Assembly (NCBI GenBank): GCA_035516255.1
Contig: DATJAL010000018.1
Coordinates: 22,992-86,991, forward strand
Reading direction: 5' to 3'
DNA from: Chitinivibrionales bacterium
GTDB taxonomy: Bacteria; Fibrobacterota; Chitinivibrionia; Chitinivibrionales; FEN-1185
DNA length: 64,000 nucleotides
Positions 21,572 through 40,799 of this stretch are shown one piece after another. A program made the translations under genes and the position numbers. The stretch's first letter is position 1. Each line of letters begins with the position of its first letter. The notes under the pieces are model-generated. The model saw only the letters and a program-made list of their open reading frames with translations. It was not told the origin of the DNA and did not search any database.

Positions 21572-21615
21572 TTTTTATCGCTGTAACTGTTTGAATTTTA
21601 TAATGATAAAATACA

Positions 21616-21645
21616 AGAAGGCCGGACGCTCGCGTCTGGCCTTCT
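21616..21645 (+). terminator. GC-rich hairpin downstream of the MoxR-type gene
   Basis: AGAAGGCCGGACG-CTCG-CGTCTGGCCTTCT: 13-bp stem with one G-U pair, 45 nt after the stop. No clear U-tract follows. Confidence 0.45.
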
Positions 21646-25504: not shown

Positions 25505-26317
25505 TTAAAGCGTATATAATTCCCAATCGAATAGTATCGTATAATGATCCCGCCTTTGATTCCTCATTTTAGGCCCCCCATTAATTAAATTCCCAAAGCC
25601 AGAATCCGCTACTGCTTCAAGAAAAGCATTTCTTGGCATCGGCATGTTATGCGGATTTAATCGATACTCCACTTGTATGCCAATATCGGCCAAATATTGT
25701 TTTATTGCAATAGCTTCAGGTTCATAGTAAGTGGTAATGAGCAAACAACCGTTTTCATGTAAATGCCTTAGTGCCTGCACAAAAATATTTTGCCAGGAAA
25801 AAGAAACGGGGGTGTTGGCAGCCTCAGAATCAGAAATGTTATAATGCATAAAAACTTCAGGATGTCGCATAATGATTATTTCATACGTCCGTTCGAAAGC
25901 CTCCGGATAGGGCCCCTTTCCATCAAATTGCGCCAAATGAATGGTGGTTTTGCCATTATTTACACCTTGAGCATTAGCTATCGGCATGCGATCAAAGGCA
26001 TAAATATGATGGGCAAAATCATGAATAACCTGTAAATCGCTCCCGCTGCCGCACGCTACAACTAAAGCTGTCGTGTTTTCAGGATCAGGTAACGCCCGTC
26101 CCCTAAAAGCATTTATCAAAGTCTGTTTAAACAAGGTTGCAGCCTTTATGCCTGGAGCAATTAAATCCATAAACTCATTATTGGGAAACCCATTATTCAG
26201 GGCTGGGATAACTTTATCCGGATGCTGCCTGATCCATTTTTTAAAATAAGTGACTTGTTGTTTAAATTCAGCTTTTAACGCGTTTTTGAATTGTAATAAA
26301 GAAGATGCGCTCATCAT
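25505..26317 (-). CDS. hypothetical protein, possible class-I SAM-methyltransferase fold; markedly AT-rich gene
   Basis: 270 aa. ALVVACGSGSD (motif-I-like), HIYAFD and ENGCLLITTY resemble Rossmann methyltransferase motifs, but only weakly. A hand count of one 60-nt line gives ~42% GC. Confidence 0.55.
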   Translation of the reverse strand: MMSASSLLQFKNALKAEFKQQVTYFKKWIRQHPDKVIPALNNGFPNNEFMDLIAPGIKAATLFKQTLINAFRGRALPDPENTTALVVACGSGSDLQVIHDFAHHIYAFDRMPIANAQGVNNGKTTIHLAQFDGKGPYPEAFERTYEIIIMRHPEVFMHYNISDSEAANTPVSFSWQNIFVQALRHLHENGCLLITTYYEPEAIAIKQYLADIGIQVEYRLNPHNMPMPRNAFLEAVADSGFGNLINGGPKMRNQRRDHYTILFDWELYTL

Positions 26318-26419
26318 TTTTCCTGGTACTCTGCTAGCAGAAAAACAGGTGTGTTTCCCATAACAATCCCTACTGACGATAAATATATACTTGGTAAATA
26401 TTCTAAGAAACAGCTAAAC

Positions 26420-26451
26420 AAAAAAGGCCCTCTCTTCATAGAGAAGGCCTT
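26420..26451 (-). terminator. rho-independent-type terminator of the gene at 26478-28019
   Basis: Minus-strand RNA AAGGCCUUCUC-UAUGAA-GAGAGGGCCUU (11 bp, one G-U pair), followed by UUUUGUUU. Confidence 0.6.
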
Positions 26452-26477
26452 TACACGCATTTCAAGAAATCTTACTC

Positions 26478-28019
26478 CTACCTGCTGAGTACCAACTCTC
26501 CGGACGTCACGGTCTTCTGTCCCTTGATCCTCACAATGTAATTGCCAGCTTGAACAAGGCTTCCAGAATTGGTCCTGCCGTCCCAGACGATGTGGTTGCT
26601 ACCCGGATTGACGGCAAGCTTGCAGACACTTCTTCCCATAACGTTGAAGACCTCGGCATGCTGCACGGTTTCTCCTTCAGAAAGATTTATCGAAGTGGTG
26701 ATAGACCTGATTCCGCTGCCGGAAACAGAGACTTGAACTATGCCTTGGCGGGAAAGATGCGGATTCTCCCTGACTTCAGTCGAAATTGGCCAAGTAGAGG
26801 CGTCAACAAGCCCTTTTCCGGCGCCGGTTTGCGCGGTCATAAGCGTGGTTATGTCCGCCGCCGTGTAGCCGTAGATGGTTACGAACTTATCAACTATGGC
26901 CGTATTCCATGCGGGATACGCACTACCCGAATGATATTTTTGATCCCTGATCTTAATTGTTGCAGCATGATCAACGGCGCCCGCAAAGGTACCCATCACA
27001 ATGGAACGCTGGTCAGCGCCATCGCTGACACTGCCGCTCCACTGCCCCGGGTCGCCCGCCCACATACAGTCCACTATGCAGAGCTGTGCTTTTGCAGGAT
27101 AGGAAGTGGGAATATTTCCAACGACGTAGTCGCAGGAGTTGACGTACATGAGCGCCCAAATCCCGAGATCGGCGGCAGGACTATCAGAGTTACTGGGATC
27201 TCCACCTGTGTGCCCGAAGTCGATTGTCTGCTTGTTATTCTTCTGGCACATCGTAACGCCGCTGTACTCCCAATAGCGGTCATGGCCCTTGTTAACGGCG
27301 CAGTTCACTAAGATGTCGACTCCGTTGATGCTTGATGTTCCAGAGGCGTTATTCAGATTGCCCGTGAAATTAGGAAGACCGGCCGGAAACTGCACTGTCA
27401 CGCCGCCCGTACCTCCCCCGAAAACAACGCCTGTCGGGATGGGTTTGCCTGCGCCGACATAAGTCGACTTGTTGAAAGGACCGGCGTTACCACCGTCATA
27501 AATACAGATGTTTGCCGGCAGCATACCCTTGCCGATAAGCACGTTGCATACTTTTGCCACAACGGCAACAGACGGAAAAAGACCGGAAAAAGTATTCACC
27601 TTTATCGCAGCTTTTGCCGTTGCCCACGTTTTACTGGACGGAATCTTGAAAATTGTGTTCCATGCGGTAGTAATGTCATGCGTATTTGCAAGCGCGCATG
27701 CCAGCTTGTCCATGTCTGTTGCGACGACTGAGTAATTCACCACCGCATCAGTTGTATTTGCGGCTGGACTGGGATTATTGAATCCATCCCACTGCGGCCA
27801 ATGGTGGTTGGCATTCATCACGGCTTGGTCCGTTATCCACGCGACGCGAAGATTGTCGATATCCTGATTGATCGGCGTCGTGCTGAGGTTCACTAGGGTG
27901 GTGTTGATAGGTGCCGCAGCGGCCTTTTTCGCGCCAGGTCCAATCATGGCCAAGCCGACCGCACTGGCAGCCGATGCCTTCAAGAAGTTTCTCCTACTTT
28001 CCAAGGTTTTCTTGCTCAT
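26478..28019 (-). CDS. Tat-signal DUF362-like protein with T9SS-type CTD
   Basis: Near-perfect twin-arginine motif (ESRRNFLKASAASAVGLA). Core AAIKVNTFSG...ILVNCAVNKGHD aligns with the DUF362 blocks of 31671-32576 (VLKANMG...LINVPTAKSHD) and 33262-34752 (IGIKVNTLGG...LINVPVLKDHA). C-terminal CTD: VFNVMGRSV...VWDGRTNSG...GNYIVRIKG...LVLSR. Confidence 0.8.
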   Translation of the reverse strand: MSKKTLESRRNFLKASAASAVGLAMIGPGAKKAAAAPINTTLVNLSTTPINQDIDNLRVAWITDQAVMNANHHWPQWDGFNNPSPAANTTDAVVNYSVVATDMDKLACALANTHDITTAWNTIFKIPSSKTWATAKAAIKVNTFSGLFPSVAVVAKVCNVLIGKGMLPANICIYDGGNAGPFNKSTYVGAGKPIPTGVVFGGGTGGVTVQFPAGLPNFTGNLNNASGTSSINGVDILVNCAVNKGHDRYWEYSGVTMCQKNNKQTIDFGHTGGDPSNSDSPAADLGIWALMYVNSCDYVVGNIPTSYPAKAQLCIVDCMWAGDPGQWSGSVSDGADQRSIVMGTFAGAVDHAATIKIRDQKYHSGSAYPAWNTAIVDKFVTIYGYTAADITTLMTAQTGAGKGLVDASTWPISTEVRENPHLSRQGIVQVSVSGSGIRSITTSINLSEGETVQHAEVFNVMGRSVCKLAVNPGSNHIVWDGRTNSGSLVQAGNYIVRIKGQKTVTSGELVLSR

Positions 28020-28065
28020 ATCTTTCCCCTCCAGATAAAGTTTTAATATTTATAAACAGTTTTTT

Positions 28066-28656
28066 CTATTGCACTATTATCGAATGAAAGTAATTCATGA
28101 ATGCGCTGGCATCCGGTAACGCAAGACCGCTGGAAGTATACTTTGTAAATTGCATCTCAATATAAAAATTGCTGAAATGACCGTATGCGTAAATCGAAGA
28201 ACCATTATTTGTGTAAAACGCATCGGAAATTAAGTAGGGCGCCAAAGCGGATTCCGGTTCCCATGAACTGCCCTGCACCTTTCCGGCAAATATCGTCTGG
28301 GAATTTGCGGCGGTTCCATATTCAATTACTAGCATCTTGACACGCCCGGTATCCGTTGCTGACATGGCCTTGAACATGAACCTTTGAAATCCTTCTTTAA
28401 GAGTGCTGTTAAGGCATGTGCCGCAGTAGGTACTGCTACCGCCATCCACATAGTTGTAAATTGATGTGTCAACAAAATTGTCCATGCTGTCGGATACCCA
28501 CCCTGCTATTTGATTTGTTATAATAAGACTCGATAAAGGGACTGAGGTAGTTCCAGGCGAGGTCGGCCCGCACAGGGAGAAGTTAAGTCCTAAAAAGCAG
28601 GTTGTACCGAAAAGAGCCAGGAAAAGACCTTTTAATAACCTTCGTTTCATGAACAC
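28066..28656 (-). CDS. small lipoprotein, paralog family member A (unknown function)
   Basis: Signal/lipobox (LGLNFSLCG). Shares IAGWV...IYNYVDGGSSTY and the ending ...IIVQ with 28892-29482. Confidence 0.65.
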   Translation of the reverse strand: MFMKRRLLKGLFLALFGTTCFLGLNFSLCGPTSPGTTSVPLSSLIITNQIAGWVSDSMDNFVDTSIYNYVDGGSSTYCGTCLNSTLKEGFQRFMFKAMSATDTGRVKMLVIEYGTAANSQTIFAGKVQGSSWEPESALAPYLISDAFYTNNGSSIYAYGHFSNFYIEMQFTKYTSSGLALPDASAFMNYFHSIIVQ

Positions 28657-28891
28657 GACCCCCTTTTTGTTAAAATACTGTCTCTTGTAACAAATATAAG
28701 GAATTTAAGCGATTTTTTCAGATAAATCACCAAAACACGGCTTTGCTCTATCAGGTTGCATGAGATATTTCGAGAATATTGTGGTCGATATTGCAACCCC
28801 AGCCAAACTATTTCAACAATTAATATAGATTAAAATAATCACTTACTGTCAAAATTGAGCATATTTTTCTTAAAAAATCAAAGGCCTTTTT

Positions 28892-29482
28892 TTATTGGAC
28901 AATTGCCTTGTATGTATCCAAAAACTTCAAGGCCTCTGGAACAGCAATGGTGGAAATTTGAGAAACCGTAAAACCCATGACATAAAATTCAAAATATAAT
29001 GCGCCGAATGTGGCGTATACATGGATGCCTCCGCCGACCACTGATGCCTGTGCTTCATTATCGGAATATTGGCCAAGGGTGACCTTAGTTGTAATATTTA
29101 CCGCGACTTGTGCGTCATACAAGGCCTTGGCTTTTGCCGTTGTGCCATAGTTATGGACATATCCGTTGAATGCATAATCACCATTGAGCGGTGAAGCAGT
29201 TGGCCCCCCATTCATTTTTTCATGGAACCATGAGACAAGACCAGAGTCTTTATACACCTGGGCCGGGCCATCGATGTAGTTAAAGAGGCTTTCGGGAGGA
29301 TATTGGACAAAATGGCTACTCGAATCCGGGACCCAGCCTGATATTTGTGAAGTAAAATAAAGGTCTTGCAGCTTGGTCTGCGGATTTGTTCCTTTATCGC
29401 CGCAATTCCATACCAGAGCAACGCAGACAATAATAAATATTGTAATTCCGCCCCAATACTGGATTTTTCGAGAATTATTCAT
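28892..29482 (-). CDS. small lipoprotein, paralog family member B (unknown function)
   Basis: Lipobox-like ALVWNCG. ISGWV...LFNYIDGPAQVY. Same length (196 aa) and same C-terminal ..IVQ as member A. Confidence 0.65.
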   Translation of the reverse strand: MNNSRKIQYWGGITIFIIVCVALVWNCGDKGTNPQTKLQDLYFTSQISGWVPDSSSHFVQYPPESLFNYIDGPAQVYKDSGLVSWFHEKMNGGPTASPLNGDYAFNGYVHNYGTTAKAKALYDAQVAVNITTKVTLGQYSDNEAQASVVGGGIHVYATFGALYFEFYVMGFTVSQISTIAVPEALKFLDTYKAIVQ

Positions 29483-29670
29483 TGGGCCTCATCTGGTAAA
29501 CAGCCTATTCTTGTTTTGAAAATTTTAAGGAGTAACGGATAAATGCGGATCAGTCGTGTCCGGCGAAAATTTCAAAAAGCACCTGTCAAGTTTCTTTTCT
29601 CGTATCCCCCCCTTCGGGGGGATTTTAAGGGGGGCTTATAACAGCATAAAATCAGCTGGACCAAACCCCG

Positions 29671-31383
29671 CTATTCAGTAAATCCCTTTGGCAGCTCTTC
29701 CCCGGAAGAAGGAATGGCGTTCTGCGGTTTGGGCGTGGCCTGGTTTTCCGAGCCGCGGGATTTGACCGTGCCTCCTGCCTCGCCGCCCGATCCCATGGTC
29801 TCGGCGCTGATCTGGTTTTCGGCGGCAGATTCCTTGATCTCCCGGAGGACTTTCCTTTTCTCCGTGATGTAAGAACCGTTCTTTTTTCTGTCTTCACCGA
29901 TTGAATACACTTCGATCGCGGCCCGGCCGTACACCGGGCAAGCTTTTTCGCAATATCCGCAGCCGATGCACTTGTCGTCCATCACGAACGGTCGCTTGAA
30001 CGGCCCCTTGAAATTGTCCACCACCATGGAGTCGATCGCATGGATGGGGCAGATTTCGGCGCAGATGAGGCAGAGCTTTTCCTGCTCCCACGCTATGCAG
30101 CGGTGGCGGTCGATCACGGCGGTGCCGAGCTTGACAAACTGTTTTTCGGGAAGGGGCAGGGCGCGGATGGCCTGCGTGGGGCACACGTGACCGCACATGT
30201 TGCATTTGTCCTCGCACGGGCCCTTGCGCGGCACCAGGTGCGGCGTCCACAGGCCGTCGAACCCGCATTCGAGGTCGGCGGGCTGGAGGCCGTTGGTCTT
30301 GCAGGTCTTCATGCATTCGCCGCAGCGAATGCAGCGCGCAAGGAACTCGTGTTCGGGCAGGGAGCCGGGCGGCCGGATGAAACGGCCGTTGATGTTGCGC
30401 GGGGCGTTGAGGCCGGCTTTTGCCGTGGCGGCCAGCACAAGGCCGGCGAACGCGGACTGGATGAACCCGCGGCGCTCGATGCTGAGCGAGGCGTTCCCCG
30501 TTCCGGCGCCGAATGAGGCAAACCCAACGGTAATGGCGTTTTTCTTGCATCCGTCAATGCAGTCGCCGCACAGCACGCATTCGGACAGCACGGTGTGCCG
30601 CGGGTTGAGGTCAACGGCGCGCATGTCGCATTTCGCGGCGCAGACCTTGCAATCAATGCACCGCTCATCGTTCACCTTGCGTTTGATGATGCCGAAACGG
30701 GAGAACAGCGATAGGAACGCACCCGTGGGGCACACGTACCTGCACCAGAAGCGCTTGCGCCAGAAATTCGCCGCAATGATCGCGGCAAGGAACACAAATG
30801 AGGCCACGCCTGTTGAGAAAAAATACCGGTGGAAACTGAACTGGGTAAAGGAGTCGAACCCCATGGCAAGCAGCATGGGGCGGACAAGATCAATCGCGCC
30901 GTTGAAGAGCCATATCATGGGAGGATACAGTACCAAGGCAAAGGACCGCGGCGCAATGGACATGGGGCTCAAGAAAGCGAGGAGGTTCGCGCCCAGCAGG
31001 GAGCTGAACAGGACGCCGATGAGGACGTAATATTTTATCCTCCGGTTGGGCTTGGGTTCAACGGACTCCTTTTTGTGTTTTTTTCCGTGAATGAGAAAAT
31101 CCGAAACGTCAATGAGGGTGCCAAGCGGGCACACGTAGCCGCAGAAAAACCTGCCCAACACGATGGTGAGAACGAGCAGCACCCCGGCCCACAGCATGGT
31201 GGCGATCACTGCGCGCGAACCGATCATGGCAACGGTCGCCACGAGCGGATCGAGCCGCAAAAAGGCGTCCACCGGAAATTTCGCGGCATAGGGGTACATG
31301 GTGAAAATAAACAGCAGAATGAAAATGCCGAAGAAAACGGCTTGCGTGACGCGGCGGAAGGTCGAGAGTTTCATGGATTTCAA
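29671..31383 (-). CDS. membrane polyferredoxin, NapH-like N-terminal half fused to NapG/MauM-like tetra-cluster half
   Basis: Hydrophobic helices carry two CX3CP motifs (CGYVCP, CRYVCP). Ferredoxin motifs: CIDCKVCAAKC, CVLCGDCIDGC. Internal ERRGFIQSAFAGLVLAATA, then CIRCGECMKTC, CEDKCNMCGHVCP, CLICAEICP, CIGCGYCEKACP. Low-complexity C-terminal tail. Confidence 0.85.
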   Translation of the reverse strand: MKSMKLSTFRRVTQAVFFGIFILLFIFTMYPYAAKFPVDAFLRLDPLVATVAMIGSRAVIATMLWAGVLLVLTIVLGRFFCGYVCPLGTLIDVSDFLIHGKKHKKESVEPKPNRRIKYYVLIGVLFSSLLGANLLAFLSPMSIAPRSFALVLYPPMIWLFNGAIDLVRPMLLAMGFDSFTQFSFHRYFFSTGVASFVFLAAIIAANFWRKRFWCRYVCPTGAFLSLFSRFGIIKRKVNDERCIDCKVCAAKCDMRAVDLNPRHTVLSECVLCGDCIDGCKKNAITVGFASFGAGTGNASLSIERRGFIQSAFAGLVLAATAKAGLNAPRNINGRFIRPPGSLPEHEFLARCIRCGECMKTCKTNGLQPADLECGFDGLWTPHLVPRKGPCEDKCNMCGHVCPTQAIRALPLPEKQFVKLGTAVIDRHRCIAWEQEKLCLICAEICPIHAIDSMVVDNFKGPFKRPFVMDDKCIGCGYCEKACPVYGRAAIEVYSIGEDRKKNGSYITEKRKVLREIKESAAENQISAETMGSGGEAGGTVKSRGSENQATPKPQNAIPSSGEELPKGFTE

Positions 31384-31585
31384 AACCTATTATTTGATGA
31401 ATAAAATGTAAAATGTGATTCTACGCTAAATTTTTATAATCTACAATCAAAGAAATCAATTCTCTCCCGGGAGCGTTGCGGGGTGGAACCCCCGCTGAGA
31501 GGGGTGCGGGTGCACTTGGCAAAAGACATAGCAACATGGTGCGAAGCACCGATACATTACCAAGGTGAATAAAAATGACAGATCA

Positions 31586-31615
31586 CCTCCCGCCTTTTTG
31601 TTTTTTGGCGGGAGG
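31586..31615 (-). terminator. hairpin between the DUF362 gene and the polyferredoxin gene
   Basis: CCTCCCGCC-(12 nt T-rich loop)-GGCGGGAGG, 9-bp perfect stem, 56 nt downstream of the 31671 stop. The U-rich stretch is not immediately adjacent. Confidence 0.4.
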
Positions 31616-31670
31616 AAGCTGCACCCCAGGGGAGATACTTTTCCCCACCAGGAAATTTTTATTTTTGAAT

Positions 31671-32576
31671 TTATACTATCTTCACGTCCATTTTTTCCAC
31701 GTCGATTTCGCCGAGACCCATGGCGTAGGCGTTCTTAATGTGCTTGACCTGGTTGCCCTTGAATTCCTTGTTGTACCAGCGTGCAATGCCCACGGTGTAG
31801 GAATCCGCGGCAACCGGGTCTGCGCTTGCCACTACCGTATTGAGCTCGTCGGTTTTTCCCGGGCCGCTCGGACCGTTGGTGACCAGCGCGTATACGGCGT
31901 TGACAATAGTTAACGTCGGCTTGATAACGAGCAAAAGGTCGGCAATGGCCTGGTTGAGCTCCACCTGCTCGTGCATGAACTGGCGGTCCCACACCAATCC
32001 CATGAGGTTTTTGATGCCCAGGCTCACGCCGGTTGCGTCATGCGATTTTGCCGTGGGAACGTTGATGAGGCAGTTCGCGCGCAGCACCTCCTTGGCAATG
32101 GCCGTGGTCTTGAGCTGCTTGCCGTTCGGAATGGGGGTGTCCTGGTAGAACTTCTGGTCTTCGAGAAGCGCCACCACCACGCCTTTGAGGCTTTCAACCG
32201 CTGCTCCGATGCCGCTTTTTTCCTTGCAGACTTTCCCGTCGCGCAGGGGATGGTCGATCACGATCACGCGCTGCGCTCCCGCGTCGAGGCAGAGCTGGGC
32301 GGTTGCCTTGACGATTTCCGGGTGCGTGGTAGTACCCCATTCGGGCGGGTTGGGGAAGCCCATGTTGGCCTTGAGCACCACGCGGTCGCCCAGTTTCACG
32401 AATTTCTTCATTCCGCCGAGCGCATCGACCGCTTTCTTCACCAGCTCTTCGGGCTTGCCCTTTGCAACCGCGACAAGCGGCTTTTTATTGTCTTGGGCCA
32501 GCACGGGAACAGACGCCAATGCGGCGCCCGCGGCTGCCGCGCTTCCTGTTTTGAGAAAATCTCTGCGCGATATCAC
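31671..32576 (-). CDS. Tat-signal DUF362 domain protein
   Basis: MISRRDFLKTGSAAAAGAALA (twin-arginine). DRVVLKANMGFPNPPEWGTTTHPEIV...RVIVIDH...CLINVPTAKSHDATGVSLGIKNLMG...ADPVAADSY is the canonical DUF362 layout. Confidence 0.85.
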   Translation of the reverse strand: MISRRDFLKTGSAAAAGAALASVPVLAQDNKKPLVAVAKGKPEELVKKAVDALGGMKKFVKLGDRVVLKANMGFPNPPEWGTTTHPEIVKATAQLCLDAGAQRVIVIDHPLRDGKVCKEKSGIGAAVESLKGVVVALLEDQKFYQDTPIPNGKQLKTTAIAKEVLRANCLINVPTAKSHDATGVSLGIKNLMGLVWDRQFMHEQVELNQAIADLLLVIKPTLTIVNAVYALVTNGPSGPGKTDELNTVVASADPVAADSYTVGIARWYNKEFKGNQVKHIKNAYAMGLGEIDVEKMDVKIV

Positions 32577-32707
32577 GGTATCACTCCTTGTTTATAAGTA
32601 ATGACGCTTTTTTACCCATGAATTGATAAATATACATCCTTTGACCATACTCAAACTAATCCGACAACACAAGGCGCGAATCAATTGTCAATCAAAATTA
32701 TTATTGC

Positions 32708-33265
32708 TCATTCGACTCCGATTTTCTTGTCAATGTTCCAGTAAAACTGCTTTGCCATGTTGAGCGCGAAGTCGGATTTCTCGGTGGTGGATATCCTGAG
32801 GAATATGCTCTGTTTGGCGTACTGGATGGTGTACGAGGTTGCCTGGGAAAGGTCCACCACGACGATGGGGTTCTTCGTGCTTATCAGATCGGGCGAGGTG
32901 GGGTAGAAGAAGTTGAAAAGGTCAAGCGCGTTTTGCTCGGTGCCCTGATTGAAAATCGCCACGTTGATGTCGATGCTGCCGTTGCTGTACAGCTGCACCA
33001 CGCCCTCCTGGAACCCGTAGGTGATGTAAGTCTGCGCCGCGCCGTCGATGGCGGCATAAATCGACTGCTCGTCGGTCATGGTGGAGACGCTGCCTTTCTT
33101 GACAAATCCGCTTATGTCGTTGTCGATGGGCAGATAGTCGGCCGGGTCGGCCCCTGCGCCGGGATCCTTGCTGATGCGGCATTGGGAGAGAAATATCAGT
33201 GGAAGCGCAATTATTGCGATACGGTAAACGGGAGATCTGAAACTTGTAAAGCCAAACGCGTTCAT
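32708..33265 (-). CDS. small lipoprotein, paralog family member C (divergent)
   Basis: Lipobox-like LIFLSQC. ISGFV...IYAAIDGAAQTY matches the family motif. The start overlaps the upstream stop (ATGA at 33262-33265). Confidence 0.6.
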   Translation of the reverse strand: MNAFGFTSFRSPVYRIAIIALPLIFLSQCRISKDPGAGADPADYLPIDNDISGFVKKGSVSTMTDEQSIYAAIDGAAQTYITYGFQEGVVQLYSNGSIDINVAIFNQGTEQNALDLFNFFYPTSPDLISTKNPIVVVDLSQATSYTIQYAKQSIFLRISTTEKSDFALNMAKQFYWNIDKKIGVE

Positions 33266-34752
33266 ACGAGGGAAACCTTCCCCGAAACGAAATTGGTGGA
33301 TCCAAGATTGTATTGAATGGCGGCATCCAAGATGTGCCGCGCATCGGACTGATTCGGGTTAGTGCTTTGCGTCCAGGAGATTTCCGGAAGGGTGGGCGCG
33401 TATTTGGCCCGTAATGCATTAATTGTTTTCAAAGCCCATGTATCTATCGCCACCGGATCAGTGCCTACGACAATAGAATTTGGTTGGCATGTGGGCGGCC
33501 CGTCTGGCCCTCCCGAAAAGCATCCCTGGAGCGCGTCTCCGACAATGAGAGCAAGCTTGGATGCGCCGGTTCTTGCATTCGGTATTGCTCTAACGGCTTG
33601 ATACAGGGCAGGGATCGACGGACTGCACATCGTGTCATGGAGCGTCGCCGGGCCGTTCCAAATGTCGGTAATGCCGTAAAGGTTCTTCATCGAGAATGAT
33701 ATTCCGGACTGCGCATGATCCTTGAGCACCGGAACGTTGATCAGAAAGTCAACGGCTTCGAATATGGCGGTTAGCCTTTTGTCTGTGCCGGCGATGTTGA
33801 CGGTGGATCCCCACAAAGCGGAACCCGGCTCCTGCTGACTTACAGGAACACCATCATTGAGCGTGGTGTTGAAGCTGGCCGACGCGATCCGGCTGGTTCC
33901 TTTCACGTTTCGCAAGGGAAACCCGGCCGCCGCCATCTGAGAGCCCGGAGCCCTGTCGTCGAAAATAATGATTTGGTACGCCGGGAACGTTCCGCCAAGC
34001 ATTGCTGTCAAACTGCTTACGATGGCGGTTACAACCTCTGGCCTCGTACTCACATTTGACCCGCCGAGGGTGTTGACTTTGATTCCTATAAGCGAAGATG
34101 CAGTCAACCCCGGGAACAGCGATTCCCACGCGGCCGTTGCGACCGCCGGATCCTGGGTGCTTCCCGAGGGAATTGCGCCGTTGTCAATCTGCATCTGTGC
34201 GACCGCCGCGTCAATCATCGACTTCAACAGGGTCGCCTGAATATTCGGTTTTCCAATGGTGCCCGTGTTGACGGTGGCATTGGTGACAGGATACACATGC
34301 GACGGCTTCTGAATTGGAACAAGCAGACGATCGGACGGCGGGCTTTGGTTTCCCATCTGGCCATTTGGCCCGGTAACGGGACTGGAGTCGACTGCCCTCA
34401 CTGTGTAAGCGCAGGTACTGCCTACGGCAAACCCACTGGCATCCACGAAACCCGGATTGGTTACCTGTGCAAGCAGGGTGTCGTCGCGGTACACATCATA
34501 CGCACGGATTCCAGTCCACAACTTTGCTCCCGTAACATCGGTAAGGGGCCTGTCCCAGGTGATCATGACCGAATCGACGGCTCCGGAATCGCTTGTGGCC
34601 AAGTTGTAAGACAAACCTGTCGGCGCGGCCGGCAGCCGGATATCCGGCTCAACGACTGTTCGCTTATCGCAGCTTGCGAGAACGCCTATTCCTGCTGCTG
34701 CCTCAAGCGAATTGATCAGGAACTTCCTTCGGTTGATTTTCTTTGCATTCAT
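33262..34752 (-). CDS. Tat-signal lipoprotein with FN3-like module and DUF362-like domain
   Basis: INRRKFLINSLEAAAGIGVLASC (RR motif plus lipobox). The FN3-like stretch is PTGLSYNL...ITWDRP...YDVYRDD...YTVRAVDS. DUF362 blocks: IGIKVNTLGG, LINVPVLKDHAQSGISFSMKNLYG, TDPVAIDTW. Confidence 0.8.
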   Translation of the reverse strand: MNAKKINRRKFLINSLEAAAGIGVLASCDKRTVVEPDIRLPAAPTGLSYNLATSDSGAVDSVMITWDRPLTDVTGAKLWTGIRAYDVYRDDTLLAQVTNPGFVDASGFAVGSTCAYTVRAVDSSPVTGPNGQMGNQSPPSDRLLVPIQKPSHVYPVTNATVNTGTIGKPNIQATLLKSMIDAAVAQMQIDNGAIPSGSTQDPAVATAAWESLFPGLTASSLIGIKVNTLGGSNVSTRPEVVTAIVSSLTAMLGGTFPAYQIIIFDDRAPGSQMAAAGFPLRNVKGTSRIASASFNTTLNDGVPVSQQEPGSALWGSTVNIAGTDKRLTAIFEAVDFLINVPVLKDHAQSGISFSMKNLYGITDIWNGPATLHDTMCSPSIPALYQAVRAIPNARTGASKLALIVGDALQGCFSGGPDGPPTCQPNSIVVGTDPVAIDTWALKTINALRAKYAPTLPEISWTQSTNPNQSDARHILDAAIQYNLGSTNFVSGKVSLV

Positions 34753-34889
34753 AAGAACCTACCGTTTCTAGAGAACCTGCGAAAAAACACAAATTTACCC
34801 TTTTGGCTTAAATCCTAGATCTTGACCCAATTACATATACGCACAGGTCTCCCTTGTAATTTGGCCTTTTTTCCGCTTTTTCGCTACTA

Positions 34890-37800
34890 TTAGAAGAGCG
34901 CCGTTGCCTTCAGCTCGGCCATGTTATAATTCAATACCTTCTGGTCGAACAAATAGTCCACTTCCAACAGCAAACGTAAGAAGAAATTAGCCCCTGCCTT
35001 CACCTGTATGTCGAGCTTGTTCTGCCATGCCTTGTCATAGCTCCTGAATGAATAATTCGCCCCGTTTGAAAGCATGGCTCCTATATAATATTGAGTTCGC
35101 CATTCCCTGATTACTTTTCCCTGAATGCGCCAGTCGAACAGGATCCCTGGTGTGATGGTGTTGAGATAGCCGGTCACGGTGTCCCTGGTGATATTGGTGC
35201 CAAGGTTGGTGAATGTGGAGTCCAGGTTCTGCCAGAGGATGTCCACCGTGGATTCAGTCCTAAGGTTCGGCACCCACCGTTCGGTCCACTTTATTCTGAA
35301 TTCATCCTGGTAGTTCTTGAGCGCAAACGTGTCGAGCTTTTGCGTGTAATCCGGCATATGTAAGTTGTCGAAAAACATGTTGAAATCGATGTCGAACCTG
35401 GTTTTCCTTTCTCTAAAGGCAAGACGCGCCTCGTTGTACCATTTGAGGCCGTCGTCGGTTGCGAGGGTGAAATTCGTTGAGTTCGTTTTCTCCAGCCTGC
35501 TGTCGAAATGAAGGTCTTGTGAAAAATCAAATATAGGCTTAATAGAGTAAGTTTGATTTAATGTATTCGTTCTTGTTTCGATTGTATCGGGTATTAACTC
35601 CAGGGAATCCCCGTTGGAAAATCCATATCCCAGGTTGAGCTGAAACGGGTTGAGAAACGTCAGGTAGACCCCGGGAACAAGAAGCAGGCTTCCATTTACC
35701 AGGTTCGCGGTTGTTGTTATCCGATCATCCGATGCAATGACGTTTTCCGAGGTTTGCAGCTGGTAATCGCCGTACAGGGTGATACCGGGGATCAGTTCCT
35801 GGGAAAAAAGTTTGAATTCGGGCCGCAATGTGTTCCCTCTATAGTCCATTGCCCCGTTAAGACTATCGCGGCCCTGAAAGATCCTGAAAACGCTCTTGGT
35901 TTCGAGCTGCAATTTTTTAAGGGGAGAAAACCTGATCCAGGCAAAAATATTATGGTCGAGCTTCTGATCGAACCGCGACTGCAGGTCGTAGGTGCCGGGT
36001 GCCGCGCCGGGGACAATGTTCGTGTCAACCGAATCGGTGAGGAGGTTGACGGAATACGAAGCGTCGAGCCATATCCTGTCGAGCACCTTGAAGGTGCGGC
36101 CCCATTCGGTCTCGATGATGCCGTTCCACCGGTCGGACCTCAGGGAATCGCGGTCGCCGCCGGGCAGGGAATCGCGCGTCAGGCGGGTGTAGTTTCTCAT
36201 GTCCTGATGCATGCCGAACAGCCTGAGCGACGGGATGTCCGGCGGCGAGATGAGATACTGCGCATACTCCCTTACCTCGCTGCCGCACGAGGCGTCGGTC
36301 ATATTCGCTCCCACCGTGATGGGCATGTACTGTTTCCAAACGTCCCAAACCAATTCGCCCTGCTCCTGGTGGTTGATCCTTCCGTACACCGAATTCTGGT
36401 CGGCGAGGGTGACGTAGTCGGGCGTCTCGTACATTCCCGAGGCCTTGAGCTTGAGGTTGTGGGCCACGGAGTACAGGTCGAGTTTCGCCGCGGTCCCCTG
36501 TTTTGTCACGAGAATGGAATCGTTGTAGCTCCCCGACACCTCGGGCACGGCCCTAAGATACAGTTTGCTGTCGGCGGATTTCATCTCTATCTTGCTGTTC
36601 ACGCTGCCGGCAAAGTCGCGGTTGTAAACGCTGTCGAGGCCGTTGCGGCTGGGCTCCTTGAACCCCCGGTACGCGCCGTTGACGCCCAGCGCGACCTTGT
36701 CGCTCAGCTCCACGACATTTTCGGCCGCGGCCATCTGGTTGGTGTATACCCCGATGGTGGGCTGGTACTGGCACGAGACCTCGATGCGGGAGTCGGGGTT
36801 GGCCAGCCCCTCGTTCTTGAACGTGAGCAGGCCCATGGTCCGCTCGATGCTGTAGTCGCTCGGGTCGACGAGCTGTCCGTCAACCAGGATCTGCACGCTC
36901 TCGGTGACGATGTTCTCCACGCCGAGCTCGTAGAAGTTGTCTTCACGGAAGGGAATGAGCTTCCTGAAATACTCGGCCTTGCCGAAGCCCGCCCACAGGC
37001 CGGTGTTGACGCGGCGCAGCTTCTTGTCGCCCACGCGGTCGCCGAACTCCGCGCGGACGCCCGCGCCCTCGAGGTAGGTGGGGTTAATGAGCGAGCTGTA
37101 GAAATAGTCGGTCTTCTGGTCGGTGCGCCAGCCGATCCTGCGCAGGTTGTCGTCGCCGAACCCGCGGTATTCGGCGCCGTAACGCAGGTCGCCGAGCGGG
37201 TCGGTGTTGTCGTAGGTGGCGCGCAGCGTGCGGCCGTTGTTCAGGTCGGCGTTGAGGTTGAGGTTGGCCTTTGCCCATCCGTACAAAAAGTCCTTGTAGG
37301 TCGCCACGGTGTCGACGGGCGCGCGCGTGATGGCGCCGCCCGCGGCCGTGTCGTAGGCGTACACGACGGAGTCGAGGTTCTTGTTTGTCAAATAGTTGCC
37401 GATGCTCGTGGCGAGCGGCGCGGGAAACTCGGCCTTGTTTTCGACCTTGTATTCGGCGGTGCCGCGGAGGTTCAGGCTCTGGCCGCCCGGCGCCTCAACG
37501 CCGAGCCCGGTCTCGTCCATGTGCCCCTTCCACTTGGGCTTCTGCCCGCCGCCGGCCACCTTGATCTGGGTGGCGTACCAGAGGTCCTGGTCGGTTTTCA
37601 AATAGGAGAACGTGGTGCCCTTTCTGCACAGCGTGGTCTGGCCCGAGGTGTACACCTCGTCCTGTACGTCGTCGCTGAGGCCGTCCACCGACGTGTAGGT
37701 TTTCCAGAGCCGCTTGTCCTCGTCGAACGAATACACGCCGTCGGACGTGGCAAACCATTCGGTGGTCCCGGAGGTGGAGAGCGAATACACCGTTTTCTTC

Positions 37801-38609
37801 TCGATGGGCATGTTGCGCGAGAAGTTTTCCCAGGTCTGGTTCTTGCCGTTGAACCGCGCCACGCCCTCGGGCGACATCACCCAGATGTACGACGCGTCGA
37901 CGAGCATGTAGTTGACCGCCGAACCCACGATGCCGTTGTTGAGCGGGTAGGAGTTCCATGCCTTCATGGCGATGGAGTAGCGCGAGAAGCCCTTGTCGGT
38001 CTCGGCCCAGATGTAGTCGCTGAAGCTGAAAAGCCTGAACACCGTGTTCGAGATGAGCCCGGTGCCCGCGGTGTAGCTTTCCCATTTCTCGAATTTCTTG
38101 TCAAAGTAGAATACGCCCTGGTCGGTGGCCACCCACAACTGGGCCTGGTTGGAGTATAGGTCGTAGATGCGCTTGCCCGCAAAATCCCCCATGGGCTCCC
38201 ACTGCATCACCAGCTTGTTGAACCGAGCCAGGCCGTGCGGGCCCGCCGCGTACACGTAGTCGAGGTCGGCCACGAGCCTTACCACGGTGTCGGACGGCAT
38301 GCCCTGCTTTGCCGAATAGGGTTTCCAATCGAGGTACCGCATGTCGGCGTAGAGCGCGCCGCGGTTGGTGCCCACCCACAGTTCCTTGTCGTCAAGGCAC
38401 AGGTCGTTCACGGCCTCGGGCCTGATGTTGCCCCATGCCTCGTTTTCGGTCTGGAACCGTTGCAGGCCGAAGTCGGTGCCCCACCATACCGAGTTATCAT
38501 ACTGGAAAAACAGTTGGCGCGGCGGGGGAGTGGCGGCGAAGAGGCCGCACAACATGCCCGCACCCGTGATCAAAAGGATTTTTTTTATGACCGCTGATGA
38601 ATAAGACAT
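34890..38609 (-). CDS. very large envelope protein: N-terminal propeller repeats + long probable outer-membrane beta-barrel
   Basis: ATG 38609 gives the signal-like MSYSSAVIKKILLITGAGMLCGLFAA; the track start is 38693. There are five blades of the type LWVGTNRGALYAD / LWVATDQGVFYFD / IWAETDKGFSRYS / IWVMSPEGVARFN / EWFATSDGVYSFD. About 850 aa of Y/G/N/D/T-rich alternating sequence then end in ...ELKATALF (C-terminal Phe, as in OM barrels). Confidence 0.7.
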   Translation of the reverse strand: MSYSSAVIKKILLITGAGMLCGLFAATPPPRQLFFQYDNSVWWGTDFGLQRFQTENEAWGNIRPEAVNDLCLDDKELWVGTNRGALYADMRYLDWKPYSAKQGMPSDTVVRLVADLDYVYAAGPHGLARFNKLVMQWEPMGDFAGKRIYDLYSNQAQLWVATDQGVFYFDKKFEKWESYTAGTGLISNTVFRLFSFSDYIWAETDKGFSRYSIAMKAWNSYPLNNGIVGSAVNYMLVDASYIWVMSPEGVARFNGKNQTWENFSRNMPIEKKTVYSLSTSGTTEWFATSDGVYSFDEDKRLWKTYTSVDGLSDDVQDEVYTSGQTTLCRKGTTFSYLKTDQDLWYATQIKVAGGGQKPKWKGHMDETGLGVEAPGGQSLNLRGTAEYKVENKAEFPAPLATSIGNYLTNKNLDSVVYAYDTAAGGAITRAPVDTVATYKDFLYGWAKANLNLNADLNNGRTLRATYDNTDPLGDLRYGAEYRGFGDDNLRRIGWRTDQKTDYFYSSLINPTYLEGAGVRAEFGDRVGDKKLRRVNTGLWAGFGKAEYFRKLIPFREDNFYELGVENIVTESVQILVDGQLVDPSDYSIERTMGLLTFKNEGLANPDSRIEVSCQYQPTIGVYTNQMAAAENVVELSDKVALGVNGAYRGFKEPSRNGLDSVYNRDFAGSVNSKIEMKSADSKLYLRAVPEVSGSYNDSILVTKQGTAAKLDLYSVAHNLKLKASGMYETPDYVTLADQNSVYGRINHQEQGELVWDVWKQYMPITVGANMTDASCGSEVREYAQYLISPPDIPSLRLFGMHQDMRNYTRLTRDSLPGGDRDSLRSDRWNGIIETEWGRTFKVLDRIWLDASYSVNLLTDSVDTNIVPGAAPGTYDLQSRFDQKLDHNIFAWIRFSPLKKLQLETKSVFRIFQGRDSLNGAMDYRGNTLRPEFKLFSQELIPGITLYGDYQLQTSENVIASDDRITTTANLVNGSLLLVPGVYLTFLNPFQLNLGYGFSNGDSLELIPDTIETRTNTLNQTYSIKPIFDFSQDLHFDSRLEKTNSTNFTLATDDGLKWYNEARLAFRERKTRFDIDFNMFFDNLHMPDYTQKLDTFALKNYQDEFRIKWTERWVPNLRTESTVDILWQNLDSTFTNLGTNITRDTVTGYLNTITPGILFDWRIQGKVIREWRTQYYIGAMLSNGANYSFRSYDKAWQNKLDIQVKAGANFFLRLLLEVDYLFDQKVLNYNMAELKATALF

Positions 38610-38802
38610 GGATTTCCGGACTGACAAAGATGGTTTAACCGGCGAACGTAAAAACAAAAATGAGCCAAAACCGGTTAAATGGGATCTTTTCACTGCGCGC
38701 GTTCAACAAACTCAGTTCGGTGTACGGGGGGCATAACCGGAACCATCAAACGGCAAATAAAATATATGAAAATACGGGGGGGTTCAATATAGTTGTCTAA
38801 AA

Positions 38803-39420
38803 TTATTTCCACGATTTCACGATTTTCACCGCGTCCCGCATCTTGTAATGGTTTTTGATGCCGGGCTTGATCTCCACGCCGCTGTTAAATTCCACAGCAT
38901 AGGGCGAGACGTTTTCAAGCGCCTCGCGAATGTTGGACGGATTAAGCCCGCCCGACAGGATGATGTTAGGGTATTTCTGCGCGGCCTTTTTCGCGATCGA
39001 CCAGTCAAACGTTTTGCCGCTGCCGCCGCGGCCCTCGCTCCAGGTGTCGAGCAGATAGCCGCTCACCTTGTAACGGCCGAGCGAATCGAGCGAGAAATCA
39101 GGGCCGACGCCGAATGCCTTGATCACGCCGCAGGAAAACCCCGCGGCAAGCTCGGGGGTTTCATCGCCGTGGAGCTGTACGGTATCGATGCCGGTCTGCT
39201 GATAAATTGACATTATGGTATCTGCAGTGTCGTTAACAAACACGCCGACCTTTGACACGAACGGCGGCAGCCTGTTAATGATGTCTTTTGCCGCGAACGG
39301 ATGGATGTAGCGCGGGCTCTGGGGGTAAAAAATGAACCCGAGCGCGTCAACGCCGAGGCCCACCGCGGTCTTGGCGTCTTCATACTGCGTGATGCCGCAG
39401 ATTTTTATTCGGATGGGCAT
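38803..39420 (-). CDS. trpF: phosphoribosylanthranilate isomerase
   Basis: MPIRIKICGITQYEDA...GVDALGFIFYPQSPRYI...VQLHGDE...ILSGGLNPSN. Confidence 0.9.
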   Translation of the reverse strand: MPIRIKICGITQYEDAKTAVGLGVDALGFIFYPQSPRYIHPFAAKDIINRLPPFVSKVGVFVNDTADTIMSIYQQTGIDTVQLHGDETPELAAGFSCGVIKAFGVGPDFSLDSLGRYKVSGYLLDTWSEGRGGSGKTFDWSIAKKAAQKYPNIILSGGLNPSNIREALENVSPYAVEFNSGVEIKPGIKNHYKMRDAVKIVKSWK

Positions 39421-39801: not shown

Positions 39802-40032
39802 TTATTTTTCTTTTTCCGTTAATTTCTTCGCGGCTTTTGTCGGAAACAATTTCGCGTAAATGTCTTGTTGCCACTTGACAATTTTTTGAACGCACTCGGT
39901 GCAAATGTCCGCGGAACGGGTATCGTTAATAGGTATGTGATTAAAAACGGGATTATAATTTTTGATTTGGCTGCCGCATAAGGTGCAGTTCATGTTGTTT
40001 ACTTCTGCGGACGCTGCCGATTTGTTATTCAT
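39802..40032 (-). CDS. small zinc-ribbon-like protein
   Basis: ATG 40032 overlaps the upstream stop (ATGA). Two CxxC pairs (CTLCG ... CTECV). 76 aa, basic C-terminus. Confidence 0.5.
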   Translation of the reverse strand: MNNKSAASAEVNNMNCTLCGSQIKNYNPVFNHIPINDTRSADICTECVQKIVKWQQDIYAKLFPTKAAKKLTEKEK

Positions 40033-40799
40033 TTCAGAACCCCTTCCCTCAGCAACCTCATCAACCCCTCCTTCCACACCGGCCAGTCATGACCGCCCTC
40101 CAATTCGACCACATGTCCTTTTGGCAGCGCCTGCTCGAGAATGCGGATCCCTGGCGCAAGCTTGTCTTTAACGCCGTATGCGACATAAATCCGCGGACAT
40201 CCTGGACCGCCGCCTGCGCACCCTTTGAGCCATTGCCACAGGGGCCGTTCCCAATCCTTTTCGTCCACCTTGGCGGGCATTGACCACGCGCTGAGACCGC
40301 CTGCCTTCGTGATCTCCTGTATCGGCCCTTTCGATGTGGTATAAGGCCCCATTAAAATTATGCCTTCGATCACGCCCGGATGTTTCCATGCGTAAAGCTG
40401 CGAGCCCAGCCCGCCCATCGAATTTCCCAGAAACCAGATGCGGCGGTAGCCCTTGGCATTCGCGGGATCGATGATGTCTTTGGTGACACGCTCGTGGAGC
40501 GTGCGGTCGGCATAATAACCATAATGCACGTCGGCGGAGACAACGTCAAATGACGGCGCATAGGCCTTTATCGAATCGATAATGCCGTTGCCCTGCAGCA
40601 CCGTGATCGAGTCGCCGAAACCGGGAAGATAGACCAGGAGGCCGTCCTTGTGGGGTGCCCGTTCGTAGGTGATGGTGCGCAAGGGGATGACGGTGCGGGG
40701 GAGGCACAATAAAAATAAAGGTACGCAGAGAAAGGCAACAATCGGATGGATTAATGTGCTTGTTTTGATTGACATACGGCATTTGCCTTTTGTTTGCAT
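40029..40799 (-). CDS. alpha/beta-hydrolase (esterase/lipase-like), probably exported or membrane-anchored
   Basis: N-terminal hydrophobic segment. LVYLPGFGDS, nucleophile elbow GNSMGG, C-terminal GGHDW. Confidence 0.8.
   Translation of the reverse strand: MQTKGKCRMSIKTSTLIHPIVAFLCVPLFLLCLPRTVIPLRTITYERAPHKDGLLVYLPGFGDSITVLQGNGIIDSIKAYAPSFDVVSADVHYGYYADRTLHERVTKDIIDPANAKGYRRIWFLGNSMGGLGSQLYAWKHPGVIEGIILMGPYTTSKGPIQEITKAGGLSAWSMPAKVDEKDWERPLWQWLKGCAGGGPGCPRIYVAYGVKDKLAPGIRILEQALPKGHVVELEGGHDWPVWKEGLMRLLREGVLK

Follow-up and report, generated by a model that had tools for sequence, protein, structure and literature searches.

In NapGH and NosGH, a membrane-bound iron-sulphur (Fe-S) module serves a periplasmic enzyme exported by the twin-arginine translocation (Tat) pathway (PMC5449189). 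The same logic can be recognized in the locus described here, a block of eight genes in a 64-kb window (the whole stretch of DNA that was analysed) from a metagenome-assembled genome (MAG) of Chitinivibrionales (Fibrobacterota, class Chitinivibrionia). The block encodes a polytopic polyferredoxin (PFD), three proteins that belong to or resemble the Pfam family DUF362, three small lipoproteins and a giant, putatively outer-membrane (OM) protein. We propose, with a probability of roughly 0.55, that it represents a cytochrome-free, Fe-S-wired oxidoreductase system of the cell envelope.

The original prediction regarded this system as undescribed. That is correct for the partner of PFD and for the gene set; the fusion of NapH-like and NapG-like parts had been described before, in connection with Sec/Tat biogenesis. 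The PFD type was identified bioinformatically by Tooke et al. (2017, eLife; PMC5449189) as a NapH-NapG fusion within the dual Sec/Tat family, and examples in their Table 5 come from Latescibacteria, Nitrospirae, Caldithrix, Anaerolinea, Anaeroarcus and a Thermoplasmatales archaeon. The PFD of delta proteobacterium MLMS-1 (Q1NSB0) has the same fusion as ours, the same twin-arginine motif immediately in front of its fifth transmembrane helix (TM5), and the same positive charges after it. With reporters in E. coli, both Sec and Tat were found to be required for its insertion (PMC5449189). That article deals with membrane insertion only. In its accessible portion, the comparison with NapGH is all that is offered on a substrate or partner of PFD, and "genomic context", "neighbour" and "encoded adjacent" are absent as terms.

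Two more systems are similar to the locus in layout alone, not by homology. MsrPQ combines a membrane electron donor with a Tat-exported periplasmic enzyme. In MtrCAB/Pcc systems, a quinol dehydrogenase of the inner membrane is combined with a periplasmic redox protein, an OM barrel and a surface redox lipoprotein. The locus version found in lineages of the Fibrobacteres-Chlorobi-Bacteroidetes (FCB) type is laid out alike. Unlike in these systems, there are no haems and no molybdenum cofactor here, and the OM protein is without evident redox-cofactor ligands. The layout of a membrane Fe-S quinol module with a Tat-exported enzyme is known already, as is the PFD scaffold as a Sec/Tat substrate. 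New are DUF362 as the partner of PFD, the near-obligate linkage of the two, the LPxGF tail of PFD, the extensions of the pair by DUF6599 and an aldo/keto reductase (AKR) or by the giant protein, and the combination of Tat with lipid-anchor or type IX secretion system (T9SS) routing of DUF362 paralogues. Among the 8 million papers of the searchable literature, there is no functional study of NapGH fusions and no mention at all of DUF6599. DUF362 brings up 14 papers, several of them by way of other DUF numbers that begin alike, and none is functional work.

A check of open reading frames (ORFs) placed all eight genes consecutively on the minus strand, from 38693 to 26478, exactly as the original prediction had it. 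In order of transcription, the block comprises:

34890-38609, minus strand: giant envelope protein, 1,239 aa, with a Sec signal, a Reg_prop-type propeller and a C-terminal region of ~850 aa
33262-34752, minus strand: large DUF362 paralogue, 496 aa, with Tat motif NRRKFLI, lipobox VLASC, a beta-rich insert and a DUF362 domain
32708-33265, minus strand: small lipoprotein C, DUF6599-like and only 185 aa long; shares ATGA at its start with the stop of the preceding gene
31671-32576, minus strand: core DUF362 protein, 301 aa, matching Pfam DUF362 and TAT_signal, with Tat motif SRRDFLK; predicted to be soluble and periplasmic
29671-31374, minus strand: PFD, 567 aa from ATG 31374, with NapH-like and NapG-like halves
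28892-29482, minus strand: small lipoprotein B, 196 aa, paralogue of A and distant paralogue of C
28066-28656, minus strand: small lipoprotein A, 196 aa, assigned by BLASTP and shared motifs
26478-28019, minus strand: divergent DUF362-like protein, 513 aa, with Tat motif SRRNFLK and a C-terminal FlgD_ig/T9SS-like sorting domain
26423-26452, minus strand: hairpin resembling an intrinsic terminator, with 13-bp stem and T run, 26 nt past the last gene of the block

The overlap of 4 nt at 33262-33265 is real and the three Tat motifs had been read correctly. Likely start codons are ATG 38609 for the giant protein, whose ORF reaches up to GTG 38693, and ATG 31374 for PFD. Judged from their signals, all components are extracytoplasmic.

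The polyferredoxin and its linkage to DUF362

The PFD ORF as called (570 aa) contains two Fer4_5 modules of NapH type, followed by NapG/MauM-like dicluster domains (Pfam, NCBIfam). The prediction of a NapH-NapG-type polyferredoxin was thus borne out by the domain content. Transmembrane helices, two CX3CP motifs and two [4Fe-4S] motifs make up the NapH-like N-terminal half. The NapG-like C-terminal half carries four [4Fe-4S] motifs and a variable linker that ends in the LPxGF tail. An internal twin-arginine motif, ERRGFIQ, sits before TM5. NapGH, NosGH and MauMN are composed of the same NapH-type and NapG-type modules, as judged by CX3CP motifs and numbers of [4Fe-4S] motifs, and PFD can be read as a two-sided Fe-S membrane protein of NapGH type. 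Unlike in these relatives, both halves are fused in one polypeptide and the scores fall below the NCBIfam cut-offs. The NapH/MauN models gave 110.5 bits against a cut-off of 213 (TIGR02163) and 105.4 against 234 (NF007013); the NapG/MauM models gave 90.2 against 178.85 (TIGR00397) and 102.3 against 269 (NF007012). The partner differs as well, being DUF362 instead of a molybdo-, copper- or tryptophan tryptophylquinone (TTQ) enzyme, and there is no cytochrome.

In an alignment of PFD with 18 homologues (41-80% identity to the window protein), both CX3CP motifs, all six [4Fe-4S] cysteine motifs, RPPG and the residues P565, G567 and F568 are invariant. The same holds for R304 and R305, which are present in 18/18 aligned PFDs directly before a moderately hydrophobic helix and are followed by FIQSAFAGLVLAATAKAG...PRN. 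A twin-arginine pair with subsequent transmembrane helix was found in 74 of 76 PFD orthologues. The window protein thereby shows what characterizes the PFD type: the NapH-NapG fusion, twin arginines directly before the last transmembrane helix, and positive charges after it. The C-terminal LPxGF (window 29671-29700, minus strand), located behind a variable low-complexity linker, is kept in all 18 aligned proteins and in 65 of the 76 orthologues. It looks like a docking peptide.

We surveyed one genome per GTDB species with the PFD alignment and retained 80 PFD loci, the best 80 of 557 relatives (36-82% identity). They span about ten phylum-level groups, with carriers among Fibrobacterota, Raymondbacteria, Eisenbacteria, KSB3, Thermodesulfobacteriota and other "Deltaproteobacteria", NC10/Methylomirabilis, WOR-3, TA06, Stahlbacteria, Rhodothermales and Bacteriovoracaceae. 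ORFs of these loci were searched with hidden Markov models (HMMs) built from our own alignments. In 75 loci, the gene next to PFD on its upstream side encodes core DUF362. In one locus core DUF362 directly follows PFD, and in another one, a MAG with frameshifted PFD, it is upstream with a 778-nt gap. This amounts to 77/77 loci with flanking DNA, the other 3 of the 80 having none. The distance between the two genes, -4 nt in the median, points to coupled translation. DUF362 and PFD genes are coupled about as tightly as subunits of one enzyme. More distant NapH/NapG-like proteins, beyond the best 80 of 557, may have other partners.

A reverse survey started from 80 metagenomic loci found with the DUF362 alignment, 64 of which include downstream DNA. 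PFD is adjacent in 48 of the 64, and in 5 more it is located within ~1.5 kb or overlaps. PFD therefore looks dedicated to DUF362, and DUF362 is usually, not always, encoded beside PFD. In three of these five loci, which belong to one metagenomic lineage, a gene for a 261-aa protein similar to short-chain dehydrogenases/reductases (motif GASSGIG) stands between core DUF362 and PFD (L097:3124-3909; L099:5941-6726; L109:4784-5569). It adds a further carbonyl/hydroxyl oxidoreductase to the companions of the pair.

All-against-all clustering of neighbouring ORFs in the 80 PFD loci revealed no recurrent family beyond DUF362, DUF6599, AKR and the giant protein. The largest additional clusters were discarded, as they consisted of shadow ORFs inside DUF362 and PFD genes and of a single-linkage mix of regulators. 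A consistent link of the polyferredoxin to some known reductase, which would have spoken against the original prediction, was not seen in these loci.

Fold, conservation and export of the DUF362 proteins

Membership of all three predicted proteins in DUF362 could be upheld in part. Two of them pass the cut-off of 24 bits for Pfam DUF362 (PF04015): the core protein with 163.5 bits, in addition to its TAT_signal match, and the large paralogue (33262-34752) with 78.5 bits. The third one (26478-28019) has no Pfam DUF362 match at E<=0.01, only sub-threshold matches to TAT_signal, FlgD_ig and a T9SS tail, and is linked to the family by profile-profile comparison only. In hhalign, its family matches that of the large paralogue (99.4% probability, E 1.6e-21), which in turn matches core DUF362 (99.7%, E 1e-26). 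The direct comparison of the third family with core DUF362 gives just 50% and E 1.6e-4. The protein is best named divergent DUF362-like, its tie to the family being indirect.

A protein 100% identical to the core protein is annotated in a Chitinivibrionales MAG, which places the window in Fibrobacterota. The core protein is more conserved than PFD, with ~50-54% versus ~42% identity at equal phylogenetic distance. Its invariant positions are K69, N71, T83, T84, C96, D108, K177, H179, K189, R198 and H202, followed by GPxGPG (235-240), D253, D258 and W267-Y268. The catalytic-looking constellation of KxN, D, KxH, K, H, GPxGPG and DPVAxD is invariant in core proteins and kept in the large paralogues, in which it appears within the motifs KxN, D, LINxPxxKxH, MKN, GGPxGP and DPVAxD. 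The block (I/L)K(V/A)N(T/M).(G/S), previously ascribed to all three window proteins, is not fully matched by the 301-aa protein, which reads LKANMGF.

A predicted AlphaFold2 (AF2) structure of core DUF362, with a mean predicted local distance difference test (pLDDT) of 86.3, was compared with the PDB by Foldseek. The top 19 matches are all of the LarA family, each with probability 1.0: 18 annotated entries, comprising lactate and malate racemases and LarA-like nickel-pincer enzymes, and an unannotated Thermotoga structural-genomics entry, 4nar. The LarA matches have E-values of 7e-8 to 3e-5, 11-16% identity and query-normalised TM-scores of 0.39-0.50; such scores would fit a hinge or size difference from LarA. 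The next matches are generic Rossmann-type methyltransferases with E>1e-4. We conclude that the model has the two-domain fold of LarA. This agrees with the placement of DUF362 and DUF2088 (LarA_N) in a common Pfam clan, CL0471 (PMC11770544). Core DUF362 would thus share both clan and fold with the LarA superfamily of nickel-pincer nucleotide enzymes. Unlike LarA, it is shorter (270 aa in mature form versus ~420 aa), Tat-exported and coupled to an Fe-S protein.

Sequence comparison of core DUF362 with all PDB chains, either as a single sequence or as a profile, gave no meaningful match, not even to any solved LarA, and no solved DUF362 structure is detectable in the PDB by sequence search. Genes larB, larC and larE did not turn up in the annotated neighbourhoods (64-kb window; +/-10 kb elsewhere). 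DUF362 reportedly is frequent in proteins that also bear Fe-S-binding domains (PMC5742341). Further, according to one paper, DUF362 is found attached to CBM9 and dockerin modules in cellulolytic consortia, which gives a weak hint of carbohydrate-related substrates.

Export by Tat is a common property of these families. Twin-arginine motifs were counted in 71/72 core DUF362 proteins and in 11/12 of the AKRs described below, as well as in every large paralogue (11/11) and every member of the third family (3/3). Additional signals distinguish the paralogues. The large window paralogue has a canonical lipobox, VLASC, and a lineage-specific beta-rich insert of ~110 aa. The FN3 module proposed for this protein was not confirmed, as the insert has no match to Pfam fn3 and weak Ig-like matches alone (E 0.0026). 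The T9SS-type C-terminal domain proposed for 26478-28019 misses the cut-off of TIGR04183 (20.9 vs 23 bits); the isolated domain passes that of FlgD_ig (28.6 vs 27) and also gives a weak CHU_C match. One protein, the large paralogue, bears both a Tat signal and a T9SS-like domain of ~80 aa at its C-terminus in WOR-3, TA06 and Stahlbacteria. In the window, the lipid-anchor and T9SS-like routes appear to be split between 33262-34752 and 26478-28019.

The combination of an N-terminal Tat signal with a C-terminal T9SS-like tail (FlgD_ig or Por_Secre_tail-like) was observed in the window protein 26478-28019 (minus strand) as well as in L046:7170-8486, L063:7068-8378, L068:4059-5360 and L084:36-1349. 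If these signals are read correctly, they imply that a folded protein exported by Tat subsequently crosses the outer membrane by T9SS. In a cursory look at the literature, we did not find this combination discussed.

Gene orders, accessory proteins and flanks

Homologues at 80, 59, 43, 42 and 41% identity were examined for context. A close relative keeps the full order of eight genes, including trpF upstream. A second Chitinivibrionales lineage keeps the DUF362-PFD pair, Eisenbacteria have the pair alone, and Syntrophaceae-type contigs show the order DUF6599 - AKR - DUF362 - PFD. Throughout the survey, the pair occurs in two flavours. Flavour I is composed of a large Tat-DUF362 paralogue, a small lipoprotein of ~185 aa, core DUF362, PFD and a protein of ~1,250 aa, the gene of which comes either first or last. 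It was found in Fibrobacterota, WOR-3, TA06, Stahlbacteria, Rhodothermales (with no giant protein in view) and many metagenomic contigs. Flavour II consists of DUF6599 (~290 aa, with Sec signal), an AKR of ~400 aa, core DUF362 and PFD, and was found in Thermodesulfobacteriota, Syntrophaceae and NC10. Conservation of the gene combination in related genomes, as originally expected, could hence be confirmed for the pair in 77/77 loci and for the larger set in WOR-3, TA06, Stahlbacteria and Fibrobacterota. The third DUF362-like family is known from close Fibrobacterota relatives and, at weaker scores (E down to 2e-9), from 5 metagenomic loci.

The AKR of flavour II carries a twin-arginine signal (GRRDFMK) and a C-terminal cysteine-rich, Fer4-like domain. 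Its gene lies between DUF6599 and the DUF362-PFD pair in L007:5720-6925, L008:5734-6939 and 13 further loci. Because no NAD(P)H is available in the periplasm, we propose that this enzyme may be driven via Fe-S clusters. Upstream of the pair and on the opposite strand, six Thermodesulfobacteriota loci (L022, L025, L029, L047, L058 and L086) contain divergent ORFs of ~235 and ~470 aa. Their sizes suggest a response regulator and a sigma-54 activator; expression may then be regulated and not of housekeeping kind. Names of source records (fen_1185, SPRUCE, LacPavin) point to peat, fen, lake sediment and groundwater as the origin of many of the MAGs and metagenomes.

The three small lipoproteins of the window had been predicted to be paralogous. 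BLASTP supports A and B as clear paralogues (3e-14) and C as their distant relative (4e-5 with A, 0.007 with B). All share a cysteine after the hydrophobic region of the signal and the motifs ISGW, IDG..Y and YGT in alignment. Lipoprotein C scores 21.7 bits with Pfam DUF6599 (PF20244; cut-off 27). A and B are unmatched there, and connected to C via BLASTP and a joint profile. Positional orthologues of C in WOR-3, Rhodothermales and KSB3 pass the cut-off with 35.5, 38.4 and 52 bits, and the long form of Thermodesulfobacteriota reaches 166 bits. The idea of small lipoproteins as recurring companions is supported on the level of the DUF6599 family, which travels with DUF362-PFD even in Thermodesulfobacteriota. 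In its AF2 model (pLDDT 85.7), lipoprotein C is similar to the extracellular sensor domain of PknH, to TiME and to RseB, with matches to 4ESQ (the PknH domain; E 6e-6, TM-score 0.53) and 7CU8 at 7-12% identity. Like these, it might represent a ligand-binding alpha/beta domain. Unlike the ectodomain of the PknH kinase, DUF6599-type proteins are lipoproteins or Sec-secreted proteins encoded together with DUF362.

The giant protein has a Sec signal and a Reg_prop-type propeller at residues ~35-390. Its family profile matches the periplasmic sensor propeller of BT4663 (4A2L) with E 3e-16 over profile positions 36-307, and there are weak Pfam matches to PorZ_N and Reg_prop too. The original prediction of a propeller combined with an OM barrel is thereby confirmed as regards the N-terminal propeller, the C-terminal barrel being inferred only. 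The C-terminal region of ~850 aa matches no Pfam family and has just 44 relatives among 1.84 billion representative proteins. Several features nevertheless make an outer-membrane beta-barrel plausible for this region. The terminal phenylalanine (...ATALF / ...ITGQF) is kept in 9/9 true homologues of the giant protein, alternating 9-mers number 32 as compared with 23.9±3.1 in shuffled sequences, and the protein has no transmembrane helix and no long apolar run. Homologues of ~1,279 aa, collinear over the whole length (E 1e-22 to 1e-29), are encoded beside PFD in WOR-3, TA06 and Stahlbacteria. A protein of 1,234 aa downstream of PFD in L003 and L013 was ruled out as a homologue by phmmer and is excluded from the HMM counts. 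A second Chitinivibrionales/Fibrobacterota lineage has a stand-alone Reg_prop-type propeller protein of ~320-370 aa encoded directly upstream of core DUF362 (L003:7675-8673; L011:2-904; L012:148-1263; L017:7805-8758).

The hairpin at 26452-26423 is the sole strong terminator-like site on the minus strand within 26200-39000; none was found inside the block. The spacer between core DUF362 and PFD (31384-31670) is ~290 nt long here, versus a 4-nt overlap in most lineages. It includes a weak hairpin with T run (31594-31577, minus strand) and, ahead of ATG 31374, a stretch rich in A and T; it may contain a lineage-specific internal promoter or attenuator. No Rfam family matched this spacer. A scan for riboswitches in the block (E<=1) and in eight related loci (gathering score) yielded chance-level matches and one tRNA only.

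Genes flanking the block are unrelated to it. One side has trpF, trpC, trpG, trpE and a gene for an alpha/beta hydrolase; a methyltransferase-like gene and a gene for a 1,105-aa Ig-repeat protein (21870-25187, plus strand) are located on the other. trpF (38803-39420, minus strand) immediately precedes the giant gene and shares its orientation, as it does in the relative at 80% identity (L001:2209-2829). The trp genes of the window (trpE, trpG, trpC, trpF) are broken up by the alpha/beta-hydrolase gene (40029-40799) and a small ORF. In three Fibrobacterota lineages, the locus is bordered by genes for very large surface proteins with Ig repeats of the types Ig_2, I-set and Bact_surface_Ig-like (the window protein at 21870-25187, plus strand; L001:16992-21704; L003:1755-5849 and 18652-21677).

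A possible function of the system

We suggest that the core unit consists of a Tat-exported soluble DUF362 enzyme with LarA-like fold and of a dedicated membrane polyferredoxin. By analogy with NapGH-NapAB, NosGH-NosZ and MsrQ-MsrP, DUF362 would be the catalytic subunit, and because it is exported in folded state via Tat, it presumably carries a cofactor. The NapH-like half of PFD would reside in the inner membrane, its CX3CP motifs and two [4Fe-4S] clusters facing the cytoplasm. The NapG-like half with four [4Fe-4S] clusters would reach the periplasm by Tat, via the twin-arginine motif before TM5. As in NapGH, NosGH and MsrQ, PFD might then exchange electrons with the active site of periplasmic DUF362 on one side and with the menaquinone pool, or a donor in the cytoplasm, on the other. 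Proteins of DUF6599 type, which are lipoproteins here and Sec-secreted in Thermodesulfobacteriota, could serve as substrate-binding or docking accessories. In the extended form of the system, a lipid anchor or a C-terminal domain of T9SS type would bring additional DUF362 paralogues to a more outward location. The giant OM protein would bind a substrate from outside, probably an organic one, and hand it on towards the cell interior. By comparison with LarA and AKR enzymes, the reaction probably involves hydride or carbonyl/hydroxyl chemistry. On thermodynamic reasoning, substrate oxidation towards menaquinone is at least as plausible as reduction. In Thermodesulfobacteriota and NC10, the pair is accompanied by the Tat-exported AKR with Fe-S domain, which agrees with an Fe-S relay hub in the periplasm.

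This proposal stands on firm ground with respect to architecture, export signals, fold and the very tight gene linkage; electron transfer and its direction, the DUF362 cofactor, the chemistry and the substrate are inferred. Several points weigh against it. Since PFD falls below the cut-offs for true NapH and NapG, its quinol-dehydrogenase activity rests on analogy. Core DUF362 has a single invariant cysteine and therefore lacks an Fe-S site of its own, and its sequence matches no solved LarA from which the nickel-pincer nucleotide (NPN) ligands could be mapped. A few core-DUF362 loci (L124, L128 and L161) have no PFD in at least 3.6 kb (3.6-5 kb) of downstream DNA. Co-transcription of the whole block is not assured, because the ~290-nt spacer between DUF362 and PFD holds a weak hairpin. 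Finally, surface-exposed paralogues are out of reach of PFD and the giant protein is almost without Cys and His (0.2% and 0.7%), so a continuous electron path to the surface is not supported; these paralogues may work without external electrons. For the same paucity of Cys and His, a role of the giant protein as electron conduit was rejected.

The last point leads to an unlikely, still serious alternative, in which DUF362 proteins are redox-neutral isomerases with an internal hydride shuttle, similar to LarA, and PFD only activates or repairs their cofactor by reduction. LarA is oxidation-sensitive. LarA-type racemases and epimerases are the sole structural relatives of DUF362, and the surface or T9SS-routed paralogues beyond PFD keep the conserved residues, which fits enzymes that need no external electrons and favours this alternative somewhat. 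On the other hand, a six-cluster polyferredoxin inserted by two translocases, in strict 1:1 linkage and with often overlapping genes, would be a heavy cost for mere repair. The co-occurring Tat-exported AKR with Fe-S domain also points to real redox turnover in the periplasm. CcoG is a cupric reductase, and one might also imagine PFD as a CcoG-like metal reductase facing the periplasm, with DUF362 and DUF6599 binding metal or a metallophore. The Fer4_5/CX3CP module is indeed common to PFD and the NapH/CcoG family, and invariant His, Asp and Cys of DUF362 could bind metal. We nevertheless consider metal handling very improbable: the LarA fold, the glycine-rich GPxGPG loop and many invariant Lys and Arg are more typical of a site for a nucleotide or anionic cofactor, Tat export argues for assembly before export, and no metal transporter genes recur in the neighbourhoods.

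It is also conceivable that the functional unit is the DUF362-PFD pair only. The giant protein, the lipoproteins and the two larger DUF362-like proteins would then be syntenic neighbours engaged, for example, in surface or T9SS biology. Most Thermodesulfobacteriota loci and the Eisenbacteria locus have the pair alone or the pair with DUF6599 and AKR, and the third DUF362-like family is confined to close Fibrobacterota relatives and the five weaker metagenomic loci. However, the larger set recurs across distant phyla. Protein identities down to 21-31% and two different gene orders make simple inherited synteny unlikely, and DUF6599 follows the pair across the deepest split, between FCB-type lineages and Thermodesulfobacteriota/NC10. 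We regard a function limited to the pair as quite improbable, less so than metal handling. Least of all do we expect the block to have arisen from part of a known Nap, Nos or Mau pathway by degeneration or relocation. NapH, NapG and MauM are the best NCBIfam matches of PFD, but their scores are about half of the family cut-offs. No NapA, NosZ, MauA/B or cytochrome gene was found in the window block (Pfam, NCBIfam), all of these are likewise missing from the Pfam-annotated loci L001-L008, and the partner invariably is DUF362. The neighbourhood survey refutes this origin for practical purposes.

Returning to the proposed oxidoreductase system, its FCB-type version invites a bolder interpretation, which we hold to be speculative and rather unlikely in its entirety. 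It might constitute a cytochrome-free, trans-envelope "redox utilisation locus" similar to a polysaccharide utilisation locus. DUF362 enzymes with a LarA-like organometallic or nucleotide cofactor would be exported folded by Tat, and some of them moved to the surface by T9SS. The propeller-barrel OM protein would capture and import the modified external substrate, DUF6599 lipoproteins would shuttle it, and periplasmic DUF362 would swap electrons with the quinone pool through PFD. If this is true, it would provide the first function for DUF362 and a widespread anaerobic route by which extracellular organic matter, such as hydroxy and carbonyl compounds derived from polysaccharides or humic substances, enters respiration.

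DUF362 is an old and widespread Pfam family without assigned function and, by sequence search, without solved structure, and PFD was known only from membrane-protein biogenesis. Their association with DUF6599 in one tightly linked extracytoplasmic module offers a concrete and testable context for each of the three. The carriers, distributed across about ten phyla, are mostly anaerobic bacteria, and the module points to a periplasmic redox activity without haem or molybdenum. A cofactor of LarA type may be used outside the cytoplasm. The joint occurrence of a Tat signal and a T9SS-type sorting domain bears on how cofactor-loaded proteins may be delivered to the cell surface in FCB bacteria. In peat, fen, lake sediment and groundwater, a step of respiration or substrate processing that has gone unrecognised could matter for models of anaerobic carbon turnover.

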